Notes: generated by a model from the sequence alone, not told the origin. A DNA stretch of 44,108 bases from Candidatus Saccharibacteria bacterium UBA6575 (GCA_002434005.1 DJJF01000015.1:1004-45111), one strand, 5' to 3'. Numbered from the stretch's first letter, positions 1 to 12,912 are shown. A program made the numbers and translations.

Positions 1-2
1 AC

Positions 3-1157
3 ACGTCCCAGGCCTGCTGGCCGAAGGACGCAGCCGCCAACGTGACCGTGACGCCGCCGACGTGCGACGCGGCGGGGACGGCTTCGGTGACGGGTCTGCA
101 GAACGCGACGCTCGTGGGCACGCTCGACCAGTCGGTCGGCACCCACGTCGCGACGTTCAAGGCCGAGCCCGGCCACCTGTTCGCCAACGGCAGCGACACC
201 CTCCAGGTGTCGTACACGGTGGCGCCGAAGGACACATCCAAGTGTGAGGTCGTGAACCCCGTCAACCCGGAGGTCCAGCAGAGCACGTGCGTGGACGGCA
301 AGCCGACCACACCCATGCTCACGCTGGCGTCCACCGAGGGCATCGCCTACACCGTGTCGGCCCAGGCTCCCTACGGCCCGGGTCAGACGGTCGTGGTGAC
401 CGCCACCTGGGACGCGACCCACAACCAGCCGGCGAACCTGCCGGCCGGGTGGACCAAGACGTCGGCCAACGCGGCGACGTACAAGGTCACGTTCGCGAAG
501 CCGGATTGCACCGTGACCGTCCAGCCGCCGACCATCCCGGTCGTCGACGAGTGCGGTCCGAACAACGCCCACTACGGGGCGGTCCCCACCGGTCCCTGGA
601 CCTCGGTGACCAACTCTGACGGCAGCGTCACGGTCACGGCCAACCCTGGGAACACCTTCCCGAACGGTCAGTCCGTCACCTACCCGGCGCAGGTCGACTC
701 GAACGTGCCGTGCCCGGTGCCGCCGACGCCGCCCACCCCGACGTGCCCCGACGGCACGCCGTGGACGGACAGCAACCACAACGGCATGCCGGACGAGTGC
801 GTGGAGATCATCCCGCCGGTCCAGCTGACGGTGGTCAAGGGCGGTGCTGACATGCAGGACAAGTGCGGCACGGCCGGTGACATGTACATCGTCAAGCGCG
901 ACAAGGGCATCGTCTACACGGCCAACGGCAAGCGTGTCCGCGAGGGCAAGTGGCTGCCGACCAAGGGTGCCAAGACGGTCGTCGTCAAGGCCAAGGCCGC
1001 GTCCAAGAAGTACGTGCTGAAGCAGGGCTCGAAGACCATCTGGGTGTTCGGGTTCTCCACCAAGCCGTGCAAGCAGAAGCCCGACGAGCCGGTCCACACC
1101 GGTGCCAAGACGGCTTCGGCCAAGGTGCTCGGTCGGTTCAACCGCATGGTGGCATGA
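3..1157 (+). CDS. 5'-truncated secreted/cell-surface repeat protein with actinobacterial-type composition
   Basis: The frame is open from the window edge, with no stop upstream of the listed start at 42, and ends at TGA 1155-1157. GC is about 70% and third codon positions are almost all G/C. Cys-bounded modules repeat (..TCD...YTVAPKDTSKCE / ..TCVDG...KVTFAKPDC / ..DECG...NVPC), followed by a PPTPPTPTCP linker. The stop overlaps the next start (ATGA). Confidence 0.6.
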   Translation, partial: TSQACWPKDAAANVTVTPPTCDAAGTASVTGLQNATLVGTLDQSVGTHVATFKAEPGHLFANGSDTLQVSYTVAPKDTSKCEVVNPVNPEVQQSTCVDGKPTTPMLTLASTEGIAYTVSAQAPYGPGQTVVVTATWDATHNQPANLPAGWTKTSANAATYKVTFAKPDCTVTVQPPTIPVVDECGPNNAHYGAVPTGPWTSVTNSDGSVTVTANPGNTFPNGQSVTYPAQVDSNVPCPVPPTPPTPTCPDGTPWTDSNHNGMPDECVEIIPPVQLTVVKGGADMQDKCGTAGDMYIVKRDKGIVYTANGKRVREGKWLPTKGAKTVVVKAKAASKKYVLKQGSKTIWVFGFSTKPCKQKPDEPVHTGAKTASAKVLGRFNRMVA

Positions 1158-1702
1158 ACGGGCGCCTTCGGGCGCTCATCGCAGCAGTGTCCGTCGTGCT
1201 CGGCTTCCTCGTATGGGGAGCCGGGCCGGCGGACGCCGCTCCGGAGCGCATCACGGCACCAGCAACCGGGCTGAACGCTCCGGTTGTCTATGTCGAAGCG
1301 CCGGCGGGTGACCTTGGTGTCAGGGATAACCTCCACGTGGTCTACGCGTGGAAACATGGTGATCCTCCCTGTGACGCCAGCGGCTCCACCGTGTATGCCG
1401 GCCATGCCTGGCGTGCCGGCAACGGTGTCGCTGATCACTGGGGTCGCTTCAAGCCTGGAGACAGAATCCGGGTAGGTGGCTGTGCGTTCAAGGTGACTCA
1501 CAAGGAGTACTGGGGAGCAGACCGGGGAATCGGTCCGCTTTCCAGCCAGACTGGGCCACCGCGAATCGCACTGATCACCTGCAAGGCTGACGACTACTCC
1601 AAGCGGACGGTCGTCTTCGCCCGCAAGGTCGGCAGTAACGCGCCGAAGCACTGGCGACACAGCAGAGCCGAAGAGCCGCCCCGGGGAGGGAGATCTCCAT
1701 AG
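1154..1702 (+). CDS. Sortase-family transpeptidase (class E/F-like), N-terminal membrane anchor
   Basis: Starts MNGRLRALIAAVSVVLGFLVWGAGPADA (signal/anchor). Catalytic-type motifs are TVYAGHAW (His), IALITCK (TxxTC Cys) and RTVVFARK (Arg). It is in frame within ORF 950..1702, and its ATG at 1154 overlaps the upstream stop. High GC. Confidence 0.7.
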   Translation: MNGRLRALIAAVSVVLGFLVWGAGPADAAPERITAPATGLNAPVVYVEAPAGDLGVRDNLHVVYAWKHGDPPCDASGSTVYAGHAWRAGNGVADHWGRFKPGDRIRVGGCAFKVTHKEYWGADRGIGPLSSQTGPPRIALITCKADDYSKRTVVFARKVGSNAPKHWRHSRAEEPPRGGRSP

Positions 1703-1718
1703 GGGCAACGGGTCGTGA

Positions 1719-1767
1719 CCCTCCACACAAGGATTCAGTTCCGAGTGTGGAGGGGCACGGCCTTTTT
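1719..1767 (+). terminator. Intrinsic terminator closing GC-rich island 1
   Basis: Perfect 10-bp stem CCCTCCACAC (1719-1728) / GTGTGGAGGG (1745-1754), followed by GCACGGCCTTTTT. GC drops sharply right after it. Confidence 0.6.
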
Positions 1768-1782
1768 CATTTTCTGAAGATA

Positions 1783-1811
1783 TTGAAATTATTATTAATT
1801 TATGTTATAAT
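1783..1811 (+). promoter_or_regulatory. Sigma70-type promoter (TTGAAA-17 nt-TATAAT)
   Basis: TTGAAA at 1783-1788, a 17-nt spacer, TATAAT at 1806-1811. The ATG at 1821 is only 9 nt after the -10 element, so the mRNA is near-leaderless. Confidence 0.6.
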
Positions 1812-1820
1812 GTTGTAATT

Positions 1821-11611: not shown

Positions 11612-11781
11612 GTCGTTGTCAGTATTCATTTGAATAGCCTCGCTTACCACGGTCAGTGGATGGAAGGTTAATTTGGAGTGTGAAATCAAGTTGGTTTACT
11701 GCATAAGTATTCCAATAGAAAGACTCATTATTATCCTTGATTATAACAGGGGTGAAAAAAAGTAGCAAAAAGCTGATGGGA

Positions 11782-11818
11782 GAGCCGGGTGCGGGGACGA
11801 TGTTCCCGCATCCGGCTC
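11782..11818. other. Isolated GC-rich 14-bp hairpin downstream of the RT
   Basis: GAGCCGGGTGCGGG (11782-11795) pairs with CCCGCATCCGGCTC (11805-11818) with one G-U pair and a 9-nt loop, in an AT-rich context. Confidence 0.6.
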
Positions 11819-11865
11819 CGCCCGGAATCCAATGTCTGGTATATCAATTATTCAATGAATCCCCA

Positions 11866-11890
11866 CCGGCCAATGAGCCGGCTTTTATTT
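11866..11890 (+). terminator. Intrinsic terminator
   Basis: CCGGCcaatgaGCCGG followed by CTTTTATTT. Confidence 0.5.
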
Positions 11891-12159
11891 GGCTTAATTC
11901 TTATGATTATATGCTAGTAAAACGGGCTGAATTTCATTACAAGTCTTGACTCAAATCGCTTAACTTTTACATTCTGCTCATTAGATGAAATAATGTATAT
12001 ACAATTTCCATTACAAGCATATGGTGATTGGTCAAAGGTTTATCTAGCGAGATTTCGTGCAAGTTGCATTGGAGGTCCAGGGTAGACCTCGCACCTCGAC
12101 AGACAGGCTTTTGAGCATTCACCATCCGCAAGCGACACTTCACGACAGGAGGGACAGTC

Positions 12160-12834
12160 ATGTCTCGTGTGACTTTTTGGCTGCGGAGGGTGACCCTCGC
12201 AGCGCTCATCATGGTGCTCCCGGCGACCTGCCTGAGCATCCCCGCCCACGCGGCAGACGGCGTGAACATGAAGGGTGTGTCGGTCTTCAGGATCGAGACG
12301 ACCGACCAGCTGTACATCATCAATGACAGCAACGCGGTCGCCCAGTTCGACTACGTCGACCCGCAGTACCAGGCGCAGTCCGTCACGCTGGAGCCTGGCA
12401 CGGACAACAGTTCTGCGCCGATGTGTGCCATCTCGAAGGATCAGAACCCGAACTCCACGGTCTCTGTGACCTTCAATCCGGGTACTCCGGAGGCGGTCAC
12501 GACGGTCACGAGCTACTTCTCCATGGGTGGCGAGGTCGGCGACCTGCAGGCGCACGAGCAGGCGGTCTCCAAGGCAGCTGCGGCGGTCTCCAAGACCAAG
12601 CGCCGGATCGCCGTTGCCAAGGCAGCGGTGGCGAAGGCCAAGGCGGTTCTGGTGAAGGCCAAGGCCAGCCACCGTCAGGGCTGGATCGCTAGCTCCAAGC
12701 GGTGGCTCGGCAAGACCCAGACTCGGCTGGTGGCACTGAAGACCAAGCTGCGTCAGCAGAAGGCAGTACTGGCGAACGTGAAGCGAGAGCTTCGCGACTA
12801 CCAGGAAGCTGCTGCCTACTGCAAGGGTCGCTAG
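12160..12834 (+). CDS. Secreted protein with a Lys/Ala-rich coiled-coil C-terminal half, actinobacterial-type composition
   Basis: AGGAGG RBS. Signal peptide ...LSIPAHA|ADG. The C-terminal half is KAAAAVSKTKRRIAVAKAAVAKAKAVLVKAKA..., a heptad-like repeat. GC is about 68% on a sampled line. Confidence 0.6.
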   Translation: MSRVTFWLRRVTLAALIMVLPATCLSIPAHAADGVNMKGVSVFRIETTDQLYIINDSNAVAQFDYVDPQYQAQSVTLEPGTDNSSAPMCAISKDQNPNSTVSVTFNPGTPEAVTTVTSYFSMGGEVGDLQAHEQAVSKAAAAVSKTKRRIAVAKAAVAKAKAVLVKAKASHRQGWIASSKRWLGKTQTRLVALKTKLRQQKAVLANVKRELRDYQEAAAYCKGR

Positions 12835-12862
12835 CTCGGACGACACTGTTGGGGTACCAAAA

Positions 12863-12912
12863 AGCCCCGGTCTACGCGAATGATCTCGCGTGGACCGGGG
12901 CTACTCCTTTTT
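12863..12912 (+). terminator. Intrinsic terminator closing GC-rich island 3
   Basis: AGCCCCGGTC (12863-12872) / GACCGGGGCT (12893-12902) with an inner ACGCGA/TCGCGT pairing, followed by ACTCCTTTTT. Confidence 0.65.

Follow-up and report, generated by a model that had tools for sequence, protein, structure and literature searches.

GC-rich islands in a Saccharibacterial genome encode exported proteins and include a sortase-substrate operon of Nocardioidaceae type

Introduction

Canonical sortase systems of Gram-positive bacteria (classes A-F) anchor proteins through an LPXTG sorting signal; in the actinobacterial class E the motif is LAXTG. Cultured Saccharibacteria have Actinobacteria as their known hosts, and the hosts of environmental Saccharibacteria are mostly unknown. 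The arginine deiminase system of mammal-associated Saccharibacteria lineages was acquired horizontally (PMC8764695), and a 2021 survey found evidence lacking for actinobacterium-to-Saccharibacterium transfer between experimentally profiled Saccharibacteria-host pairs (PMC8406219).

Here we analyzed a 44,108-nt stretch of DNA (the window, W) and compared it with contigs L001, L006, L008, L014, L050, L061, L062 and L081. Mean GC content of the window is 49.8%, and three segments, referred to as islands, are well above this value. Like the arginine deiminase genes (PMC8764695), they would represent foreign genes kept in a reduced epibiont genome because of their use to its lifestyle, surface functions being over-represented; in contrast to that case, the apparent donor is an actinobacterial, probable host, lineage, and the inserts are ORF-exact with donor-level GC3. 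Classical genomic and pathogenicity islands are likewise compositional outliers encoding surface or secreted proteins beside a strain-variable segment. The islands described here, however, are gene-sized (0.5-2.4 kb), lack integrase, tRNA junction and direct repeats, and keep their positions across genus-level divergence.

Composition and genomic context of the islands

The gene order FtsK-S6-SSB-S18-EFP-FtsJ-[cassette]-YchF-...-PilM is common to the window, L014 (GCA_035437425.1) and L050, the latter two both from Candidatus Saccharibacteria bacterium. Protein identities to these contigs are 75-81% for YchF and 84-87% for EF-P. As judged by this synteny and identity, the window belongs to a Saccharibacterium (CPR/Patescibacteria) of about 50% GC; it also encodes a type IV pilus operon and small housekeeping genes.

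Island 1 occupies positions 1-~1740 (62-72% GC), island 2 positions ~2920-3440 (58-67%) and island 3 positions ~12100-12900 (60-68%). GC3 of the island genes is 0.94 for the surface gene (window part; 0.92 at full length), 0.70 for the sortase gene, 0.89-0.90 for p162 and 0.84 for p224, compared with 0.37-0.60 in all 42 other window genes. The three GC-rich islands pointed out in an earlier note on this DNA are thus real. The codons used in the surface gene, p162 and p224 agree better with Nocardioides than with the window's own genes (log2 LR per codon +0.32 to +0.68 vs -0.9 to -1.9). In composition the island genes thus depart from the recipient and resemble the donor, as expected of foreign genes, GC1/2/3 and codon choice being Nocardioides-like. 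Each GC-rich stretch coincides with exactly one ORF or operon, and the flanks (promoter, leader, terminator) are kept across diverged lineages. The same three positions are filled in W, L006, L008, L014, L050 and L061.

A surface protein and mini-sortase operon in island 1

The 3′ two-thirds of a gene for a modular secreted surface protein (GC3 0.92-0.94) are located at 1..1157 (top strand, as are all features below given with a strand); the full gene on L001 (8190-10004) encodes 604 aa. Its stop codon overlaps the start (ATGA) of a gene for a 182-aa mini-sortase (1154..1702, +; GC3 0.70). The operon is closed by a terminator hairpin, an inverted repeat at 1711..1767 (+), where the sequence switches from GC-rich to AT-rich.

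The mini-sortase matched Pfam PF04203 over the whole domain (1-125/125; 39.3 bits against a cutoff of 26.6; E=6.4e-10). Residues His84, Cys143 (ALITC) and Arg157 are invariant in an alignment of Saccharibacterial and Nocardioides members. The protein is not a member of class F (NCBIfam NF033748; 21.7 bits against a cutoff of 166), it has no PDB relative by sequence, and only 12 clusters were found at E<1e-10 among 1.84 billion representatives. By these comparisons it is a separate small subfamily. Its N-terminus is signal-peptide-like, with a cleavable-looking GPADA/AP site and no clear membrane anchor.

The surface protein ends in ...KPDEPVHTGAKTASAKVLGRFNRMVA, a variant of the PxTG-type sortase signal. 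A canonical signal consists of motif, hydrophobic segment and positively charged tail; the end in the window, ...EPVHTGAKTASAKVLGRFNRMVA, has no hydrophobic segment. In W, L006 and L008 the motif reads PV[HD]TG and precedes a basic tail of 16-25 aa, while donor proteins have APxTG plus 1-2 residues, so that recognition by the sortase is not certain. The operon shares with canonical systems the Pfam Sortase domain, the His-Cys-Arg residues and an adjacent substrate gene with C-terminal xPxTG, and one Nocardioides paralog group has a literal LPxTGA. It differs from them in that no hydrophobic segment and charged tail follow the motif of the substrate, the donor proteins stopping 1-2 residues past TG, and in that the enzyme is only 160-180 aa long with a signal-peptide-like N-terminus.

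Scanning of 185,579 species genomes for the sortase yielded 46 loci: 45 in Actinomycetota, mostly Nocardioides, and one in a Saccharibacteria MAG. A homolog of the C-domain is located directly upstream of the sortase at 45/46 loci, and the protein encoded upstream terminates in [AS/L]PxTG plus 1-2 residues, also at 45/46. A substrate with an xPxTG end upstream of the sortase is present at 45 of the 46 genome loci and in all Saccharibacterial copies. Genomes with the operon are nearly all Nocardioides/Nocardioidaceae of 70-73% GC. In Nocardioides sp. zg-1308 (HN031_20295 and the downstream gene) a 402-aa homolog is followed by an overlapping gene for a 163-aa sortase, 54% identical to that of the window, in DNA of 71.7% GC; the same gene order and stop/start overlap are found in N. 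hwasunensis (GCM10009797_10220). The window and Nocardioidaceae surface proteins have in common an N-terminal 'HHNTITGSVSC' domain, a 'VPVVDxCGPxNAHYG' module, a C-terminal domain and a TG-containing end, and the sortases (~160 aa in Nocardioidaceae) share the His/Cys/Arg triad; GC3 is the same. In contrast to the Nocardioidaceae operon, the one described here resides in a ~50% GC Saccharibacterium under a native AT-rich promoter and leader, and additional modules are present in its surface protein, among them an ICHRT...WGDIIPP domain that is also common in Patescibacteria. Homologs of the surface protein were found in Nocardioides, Isoptericola, Antribacter and Agromyces. The mini-sortase is 51-63% identical to Nocardioidaceae sortases, and the nearest donor for any island segment reaches at most 63-69% identity, which makes both donor and transfer date imprecise.

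Gene phylogenies had been called for in the earlier note, and one was built for the sortase. The copies of W, L006 and L008 group together at 100% bootstrap and fall within the Nocardioidaceae family; support is 96% for the family against outgroups and 78% for a position as sister to the main Nocardioides clade, in a neighbor-joining tree whose 172 columns give modest resolution. Nesting of the recipient within the donor clade was found for the sortase only. GC1/2/3 of the window surface gene is 0.57/0.52/0.92 against 0.61/0.57/0.93 in Nocardioidaceae homologs. For the sortase the values shift from 0.69/0.59/0.92 in the donor to 0.68/0.57/0.70, which is classical amelioration. Island 1 is thus of actinobacterial ancestry, and by these sequence comparisons its operon was passed between phyla, from an actinobacterium of a probable host lineage to a Saccharibacterium. 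Nocardioidaceae would then be a likely host group. The content of the islands had been described as host-like; for island 1 this holds by operon, sortase tree and composition, and for islands 2 and 3 by composition only.

Two orphan secreted proteins in islands 2 and 3

The p162 gene (2944..3432, +) encodes an orphan secreted protein with cleavage at VSA/QA; its GC3 is 0.90, with GC1 and GC2 near native. It is preceded by a promoter (TTGACA-17-TAATAT) and a structured 5′ leader of ~100 nt (2811..2943, +). These are of native composition and are kept in three diverged lineages, and RNAalifold detected 8 leader pairs with compensatory changes. A conserved terminator hairpin followed by a T-run is located at 3446..3491 (+). 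Only three related clusters were found for p162 among 5.8 billion proteins.

The orphan secreted protein p224 (12160..12834, +; signal peptide AHA/AD; GC3 0.84) is encoded behind a promoter (TTGACT-16-TACATT) and a structured 5′ leader of ~185 nt (11946..12159, +; fold z = -3.4), which are 98-100% identical among W, L006 and L062. A strong terminator hairpin, an inverted repeat with a 17 bp stem, is found at 12863..12902 (+). The predicted architecture is a beta-rich N-domain followed by a Lys/Ala-rich C-terminal helical hairpin, residues 126-223 having pLDDT >90 in the AF2 model. The p224 locus is polymorphic with deep alleles, and allele replacement begins just past the signal peptide: two alleles are 55% identical inside 100% identical flanks, both with GC3 of 0.84-0.87 and an S/W:S/S ratio of 14:14. 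This demonstrates recombination at island 3.

Neither p162 nor p224 has a recognisable domain, and their structure models were uninformative, being too poor for fold search. No homologs outside this Saccharibacterial clade were found among 5.8 billion proteins, phages and plasmids, so the description of the two genes as foreign or host-like derives from GC3 and codon usage. Distant syntenic homologs are present in L014 (of p162; 28% identity, GC3 0.80) and L050 (27% identity, GC3 0.66), which indicates that these families are old residents.

Export of the island products

All four island proteins were reported to carry an N-terminal signal or anchor, and our analysis, a heuristic test for a hydrophobic N-terminus, agrees. 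With slashes marking cleavage points, the sequences are MNGRLRALIAAVSVVLGFLVWGAGPADA/AP for the sortase, MKNLFAASALIIGLLFGVTPSVSA/QA for p162 and ...VTLAALIMVLPATCLSIPAHA/AD for p224. The surface gene is truncated at the left edge of the window and its signal peptide lies outside; it was read as MESQKNEKPHRGFLRRAIVHAVTLIVGVGLAVVGLAAPSSA/HH on the near-identical 94.9-kb contig L001.

In the window 4/4 GC-rich genes and 22/49 normal-GC genes encode exported products (Fisher one-sided p=0.051), the significance being limited by the high frequency of exported and membrane proteins, which are the products of about half of the window genes; in the interval 1-15 kb, 6/8 normal-GC genes likewise encode such proteins. 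With related Saccharibacterial genomes added the counts become 14/15 GC-rich against 41/92 normal genes, and, counted by family, all of the 6-8 independent GC-rich families consist of exported or membrane proteins (p about 0.002-0.008). One of the compared loci, on L081, is an independent single-gene island for an LASTG-anchored protein in a 715-kb contig of 49% GC. The proposed enrichment is therefore marginal inside the window and convincing only with related genomes. The islands are not random DNA, as the note had also held; they are conserved, retained genes for exported proteins. Surface functions are, reportedly since Nakamura et al. in 2004, enriched among retained foreign genes as a general trend, so the export pattern alone does not imply mimicry.

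Persistence of donor-level GC3

An unexpected observation was that the sortase ameliorates normally, while the surface gene, p162 and p224 hold donor-level GC3 with a GC-conserving substitution spectrum. The two co-transferred genes thus diverge: surface-gene GC3 is at donor level with its GC1 and GC2 lowered, and sortase GC3 is down by 0.22. Among 4-fold site differences between W and L006 the S/W:S/S ratio is 30:29 for the surface gene, p162 and p224 together, compared with 520:81 for core genes (p=9e-10) and 22:2 for the co-transferred sortase (p=4e-4); in Nocardioides sortase pairs it is 1508:3322. Polarised counts gave 38 S>W and 39 S>S changes in the islands against 129 and 41 in the core (p=6e-5). 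All these are parsimony and pairwise counts, rough because samples are small and 4-fold sites in the core of these lineages are close to saturated. A simple relic of transfer does not account for the GC3 of 0.84-0.94 that the surface gene, p162 and p224 retain.

Alternative explanations

It is hardly credible that chimeric assembly or contaminating DNA of co-assembled Actinobacteria accounts for the islands, or that a classical mobile island, phage or plasmid carries them as cargo. The window does terminate inside island 1, and its nt 1-103 disagree with L001, so that the contig ends within the modular surface gene. However, window 42-11702 is 99.85% identical to the ENA contig L001, where island 1 is internal; island 2 is present in unchanged context in four independent assemblies, and the island junctions are identical in ENA, two JGI and Logan assemblies. 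Recurrence in at least four independent assemblies means that the islands are not artefacts, the outcome which the note had named as fatal to its proposal, and junctions and regulatory flanks are kept in diverged species. Of the features of mobile islands (integrase or recombinase, tRNA or att junction, direct repeats) none was found in or beside the islands; as the note had stated, integrase and IS genes are absent, and flanking repeats do not exceed chance compositional matches. The sole recombinase gene of the window, of Xer type, is at 27.4 kb. A retron-type reverse transcriptase gene (10769-11611) precedes island 3 by ~550 bp, within a segment that varies between strains, but it is of retron type VI in normal-GC DNA and serves defence rather than mobility; phage and plasmid matches to the islands were not detected. 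It is also quite improbable that p162 and p224 are native, lineage-specific genes whose high GC3 arose in situ, even though they are orphans limited to this clade, have syntenic homologs in the more distant L014 and L050 and are native-like in GC1 and GC2. We know of no process that lifts single genes to GC3 0.9 in a 50% GC genome, nearby island 1 of the same composition demonstrably comes from a high-GC donor, and codon choice of both genes matches Nocardioides. Moreover, their GC3 drops with distance from W (0.90 to 0.80; 0.84 to 0.66), which looks like decay from a high start rather than gradual accumulation.

Possible, although on the unlikely side, is active maintenance of the GC-rich composition, by selection for G/C-ending codons specific to these genes or by repeated import of alleles from an unsampled high-GC reservoir, for example the host gene pool, with recombination taking place in the conserved leader/signal-peptide region and the 3′ flank. 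The balanced 4-fold ratios, the low S>W/S>S ratio relative to the core, the unchanged GC3 of a surface gene whose own GC1 and GC2 fell together with sortase GC3, and the divergent high-GC3 p224 alleles with a breakpoint past the signal peptide would all fit; native hypervariable exported genes (p328, BNR647) have normal GC3. Against this, no high-GC source with close alleles appeared among 5.8 billion proteins or in the 185,579 species genomes scanned, all contexts examined for close relatives are Saccharibacterial, and the W, L006 and L008 sortases are monophyletic. The counts are rough, and S>W changes in the islands still exceed W>S (38 vs 11), so some decay proceeds. To our knowledge there is no mechanism for gene-specific GC3 selection this large, and biased gene conversion should hit other recombining genes too. 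Rather unlikely, in our estimate, is the functional proposal of the note, that the island proteins act on or imitate the host envelope, e.g. through a host-type sortase and substrate ligated to host peptidoglycan for attachment or manipulation. The cassette is of the type that Nocardioidaceae use on their own wall; with a cleavable-looking sortase signal and a donor-type substrate lacking a membrane-retention tail, enzyme and substrate could act away from the producer's membrane. Fast protein evolution (dN/dS 0.3-0.7 for the surface protein, p162 and p224 vs 0.01-0.05 in the core) and allele exchange are expected of host-interaction proteins. Nevertheless, Nocardioidaceae are a putative host, named from sequence rather than from experiment or co-occurrence, p162 and p224 offer neither domains nor informative models, and decoration of the epibiont's own Gram-positive-type wall is equally possible and is the simplest function.

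Discussion

Overall, with a probability of roughly 0.7, we interpret the islands as foreign actinobacterial-type genes fixed in a Saccharibacterial ancestor, trimmed and natively regulated, with island 1 being a Nocardioidaceae sortase system and the survivors acting at the cell surface. High-GC genes would have become fixed in the ancestor of a Saccharibacterial clade, reduced to the bare ORF or operon and supplied with promoters, structured leaders and terminators of native kind. Island 1 would provide a complete system, a Sec-exported modular protein with a C-terminal PxTG motif and a dedicated small sortase, which presumably cuts behind the Thr and joins the protein to a cell-wall amino group. 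The other two islands, probably foreign as well, would contribute small, fast-evolving secreted proteins that exchange alleles by recombination. All products would be exported because, in a reduced epibiont genome, the surviving foreign genes act at the cell surface, where epibiont and host meet; the proteins may thus take part in host contact. An unlikely extension is that transformation and recombination with a high-GC host pool, or else selection, actively keep the surface gene, p162 and p224 host-like in their codons, and that the sortase and tail-less substrate form a covalent coupling device at the host-epibiont interface.

The tail-less [AS]PxTG/mini-sortase operon represents an uncharacterised sortase system conserved across Nocardioides. 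One transferred operon in which one gene has ameliorated and the other has not offers a clean natural experiment on post-transfer base composition. Island 1 would be a clear case of transfer from an actinobacterium to a Saccharibacterium, against the lack of evidence in the survey of profiled pairs (PMC8406219). Fixed at one locus clade-wide, a Nocardioidaceae-type sortase-substrate operon names a candidate host group and a candidate attachment system for these Saccharibacteria.

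Source organism and anatomy of the GC-rich islands

The 44.1-kb window has a mean GC content of 49.8%. It carries a type IV pilus operon (PilMNOBTC, pilins and prepilin peptidase), genes for Xer, UppP, Ndk, SodA, NrdR, ThrRS and MiaA, four tRNAs and numerous small membrane-protein genes. The genes surrounding the islands are arranged as FtsK-S6-SSB-S18-EF-P-FtsJ-[island 1]-...-YchF-...-PilM. An identical order was found in two Candidatus Saccharibacteria bacterium records, L014 (GCA_035437425.1) and L050, whose YchF and EF-P proteins are 75-81% and 84-87% identical, respectively, to those of the window. 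Because these features are common to named Saccharibacteria records, the organism is identified by synteny as a Saccharibacterium, a CPR epibiont. An ENA metagenome contig (L001; ERZ761597 NODE_15, 94.9 kb) matches window positions 42-11702 at 99.85% identity.

Three segments of the window are GC-rich: 1-~1740, ~2920-3440 and ~12100-12900. They hold four coding sequences, namely the surface-protein gene (1-1157) and the mini-sortase gene (1154-1702) of island 1, p162 (2944-3432) of island 2 and p224 (12160-12834) of island 3. The GC content at third codon positions (GC3) is 0.92-0.94, 0.70, 0.90 and 0.84 in these genes, as against 0.37-0.60 in the 42 remaining genes, which bears out the three islands described in the earlier note. 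It had also described all island products as exported and the islands as free of integrase, IS element and flanking repeats. Indeed, a signal or anchor sequence is present at the N-terminus of all four proteins (that of the surface protein was checked on L001, as the gene is cut by the window), and neither integrase, IS element, flanking repeats nor att sites were found at the islands.

An assembly artefact or contamination was ruled out, since the same islands in the same context recur in several independent assemblies. On L001 island 1 is internal, the 604-aa surface gene and the sortase having normal-GC genes on either side. The exact p162 protein was found in the same context in two JGI assemblies and in one each from ENA and Logan, at 99.6-100% nucleotide identity. 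Disagreement between the window and L001 is confined to window nt 1-103, where the contig terminates within the modular surface gene: the first 41 nt have no counterpart on L001 and all 17 mismatches lie within 47-103. This stretch is a different module variant of the surface gene and represents a strain allele or else a mis-join at the contig end.

Each island consists of exactly one ORF or operon. The islands are preceded by AT-rich sigma-70-type promoters and long 5′ leaders and are ended by hairpin terminators, all of which are kept between lineages. The islands are also overlapped by long antisense ORFs (2917-3594, 12040-12846 and 914-1726), which were rejected as genes because their codon register is exactly complementary, as expected from GC3-rich coding. 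The terminator hairpin of p224 (12863-12902) contains the mechanically called ATG (12880) of a 752-aa protein, the real start of which probably lies downstream.

Relatives of the island 1 operon

The sortase of island 1 has a complete Pfam Sortase domain with the His/Cys/Arg triad and scores far under the class F cutoff. Its subfamily is small, with 12 clusters at E<1e-10 among 1.84 billion representatives, and PDB holds no sequence relatives of either the surface protein or the sortase profile. For the surface protein, the top-ranking named homologs belong to Nocardioides, Isoptericola, Antribacter and Agromyces. Nocardioides sp. zg-1308 encodes a 402-aa homolog whose gene overlaps, at its downstream end, that of a 163-aa sortase 54% identical to the sortase of the window; the DNA there has 71.7% GC.

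The sortase alignment was used to scan one genome per species (185,579 species). This revealed 46 loci, of which 45 were in Actinomycetota (mostly Nocardioides, also Pimelobacter and Propionibacteriales) and one in a Saccharibacteria MAG. The gene immediately upstream of the sortase encodes the same C-terminal domain in 45 of the 46 loci, and the N-terminal domain as well in 41. It ends with [AS]PxTG (LPxTGA in one paralog group) and just one or two further residues in 45 loci; the Nocardioidaceae protein thus differs from an LPXTG signal in lacking the hydrophobic tail. This Nocardioides operon of a secreted [AS]PxTG protein and a ~160-aa sortase is the closest known system and is uncharacterised. 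Among the Nocardioidaceae loci (L015-L060, ~2700-4500) it is conserved in 45/46 and is apparently undescribed.

The earlier note had proposed gene phylogenies. In a bootstrapped NJ tree, the sortases of the window and of two Saccharibacterial relatives, L006 and L008, formed one clade with 100% bootstrap, nested among Nocardioidaceae. Since the distribution of loci, the sortase tree and composition are concordant, they point to movement of island 1 from Nocardioidaceae-type Actinobacteria to Saccharibacteria. The Saccharibacterial copies differ from the Nocardioidaceae operon in the motif, PV[HD]TG, in a basic tail of 16-25 aa and in added modules. A sortase is also present in L050 and in a further relative, L061, but is missing from L014. 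In a metagenome scan, the ICHRT...WGDIIPP module of the surface gene occurred on low-GC and on genuinely high-GC contigs alike.

Islands 2 and 3

Only three related clusters each were found for p162 and p224 among 5.8 billion proteins, and all readable contexts of these relatives are Saccharibacterial. Pfam, NCBIfam and PDB sequence searches gave no match. A phage or plasmid source was rejected, as no match emerged when 50,697 phage and 72,556 plasmid records were searched by tblastn. The AF2 model of p162 has a pLDDT of 37 and that of p224 is confident solely over a C-terminal helical hairpin. Distant homologs occupy the corresponding positions in two lineages further removed, L014 (p156, 28% identity, GC3 0.80) and L050 (p202, 27% identity, GC3 0.66). 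We infer a foreign origin of p162 and p224 from their GC3 and Nocardioides-like codon choice, not from homology.

The p224 leader (11974-12159) is 98-100% identical in three genomes, exceeding the conservation of the ORF, and has an MFE z of -3.4; the p162 leader (2840-2943) shows 8 compensatory pairs among 3 sequences. No Rfam family was detected in either leader at E<=1. Both are candidate cis-regulatory RNAs.

Deep alleles of p224, 55% identical and both GC-rich, occur inside 100% identical flanks, with the breakpoint directly past the signal peptide. Comparison of two Saccharibacterial loci, L062 (1-1520) and L006 (6663-8300), gave 100% identity over the end of the upstream gene, the promoter, the leader and the p224 signal-peptide codons, after which identity falls sharply to 35-75% in the mature protein and downstream DNA. 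Judging from this alignment, the junction is a recombination breakpoint.

Association of GC-rich genes with export

Export was called by a simple N-terminal hydrophobicity test, which makes some false calls in both directions. In the window and L001, 4/4 GC-rich and 22/49 normal genes were called exported (p=0.051); over all Saccharibacterial loci the figures were 14/15 and 41/92, with orthologs that are not independent. When counted as 6-8 independent families, p was about 0.002-0.008. An unrelated 715-kb contig (L081; JGI Ga0207667_10000005) carries a lone 65% GC gene (2164-4593) with ~49% GC flanks. Its 809-aa product has a signal peptide and an LASTG + TM + RR cell-wall anchor of actinobacterial type; LAxTG is the motif of actinobacterial class E sortase. 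The exported-island pattern is real, yet unsurprising in kind, because surface functions are generally over-represented among retained foreign genes.

A 583-aa glycosyltransferase of family 2, predicted to contain 6 TM segments, is encoded on L008 (260-2011, minus strand) with a GC3 of 0.84 against a locus median of 0.66, and may be another GC-rich envelope gene. It gave no blastp match to the normal-GC glycosyltransferase of the window (35042-36682).

Retention of donor-like composition

At the three island positions, at least five or six lineages carry GC-rich exported genes; additional ORFs of this kind there are p178 of L006, p164 of L008 and p326 of L014. Between the window and L006, core proteins are 90-99% identical with nearly saturated 4-fold sites (identity 0.34-0.43; 0.25 is expected at saturation), while island proteins are 75-83% identical with 4-fold identity of 0.67-0.80. 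The ratio of S/W to S/S differences (S, G or C; W, A or T) is 520:81 in the core, 22:2 in the sortase and 30:29 in the surface gene, p162 and p224 combined, the last differing from the core (p=9e-10) and from the sortase (p=4e-4); these are parsimony or pairwise counts from small samples, with saturated core genes. Polarised three-taxon counts were concordant with the contrast between islands and core. Nocardioides sortase pairs gave 1508:3322.

Relative to its Nocardioidaceae homologs, the sortase has lost 0.22 in GC3 with GC1 and GC2 unchanged, which is classical amelioration. The surface gene has lower GC1 and GC2 and no loss of GC3. A single old transfer followed by passive decay thus explains the sortase only; it is insufficient for the surface gene, p162 and p224 because of the substitution spectra, the GC3 comparison with homologs and the GC-rich p224 alleles. 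That the islands are merely younger than the core would fit their lower 4-fold divergence, but neither the spectrum nor the contrast between sortase and surface gene. Biased gene conversion at recombining loci is disfavoured, since GC3 is normal in p328 and BNR647, two native genes that are hypervariable. A nearer GC-rich donor was not found among 5.8 billion proteins and 185,579 species genomes. SNPs between close strains were too few for such a spectrum and grouped in recombination patches.

Both p328 (1821-2807; GH16-like in a relative) and the BNR/CshA-repeat protein (3575-5518) are exported and of normal GC. They are 36-38% identical between lineages with PilM and PilB 98-99% identical, which marks them as hypervariable native surface proteins. 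BNR paralogs in relatives are tandem duplicates.

Retron segment and a probable non-coding RNA

A type VI retron reverse transcriptase, absent from the earlier note, is encoded on the plus strand at 10769-11611 (PADLOC RT_VI, 3.6e-52; Pfam RVT_1), 550 bp upstream of island 3 in normal-GC DNA. Its role is in defence rather than mobility. The surrounding region (6700-12100) includes a strain-variable normal-GC segment of ~5 kb that also encodes an SGNH hydrolase, a small anchor protein and a multi-TM protein; in L006 this segment is missing and a GC-rich exported ORF of 178 aa stands in its place. The retron ncRNA could lie in the ORF-poor stretch upstream (10000-10750), where a perfect direct repeat of 16 nt occurs at 10392 and 10475.

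The 550-nt intergenic region at 36683-37234 (~57% GC) combines a strong promoter, TTGACC-17-TATAAT, with a hairpin and T-run at its end. Within it lies GGAGGAAAGTCC, which resembles the RNase P RNA core motif. No credible Rfam match was obtained, the best (E=0.016) being to an unrelated Burkholderia sRNA. The region is probably a divergent ncRNA.

Implications for the cell surface

The proposal of a host-like secretome in the earlier note holds for island 1, on the Nocardioidaceae operon, tree and composition; for islands 2 and 3 it is unproven. Mimicry or manipulation of the host envelope, as suggested there, is a hypothesis. A survey of CPR genomes reported that evidence is lacking for transfer between experimentally profiled Saccharibacteria-host pairs (PMC8406219). 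Our literature search found no published description of the surface-protein/sortase cassette in Saccharibacteria. Horizontal acquisition of surface genes is known in general kind; the new points are the donor-recipient pair, the domestication of the foreign genes as exact ORFs under native control, and a retention of donor composition that differs from gene to gene.

We propose that the surface protein would be exported by Sec and that the mini-sortase, with its signal-peptide-like N-terminus, would cut the PxTG motif and join the surface protein to a wall amino group. The p162 and p224 products would be small secreted proteins that evolve rapidly or under diversification, with structured leaders ahead of their ORFs for expression. 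Because an obvious segment for membrane retention is missing from both the mini-sortase and the donor-type substrate, ligation may take place in the wall zone, perhaps at the contact with the host.
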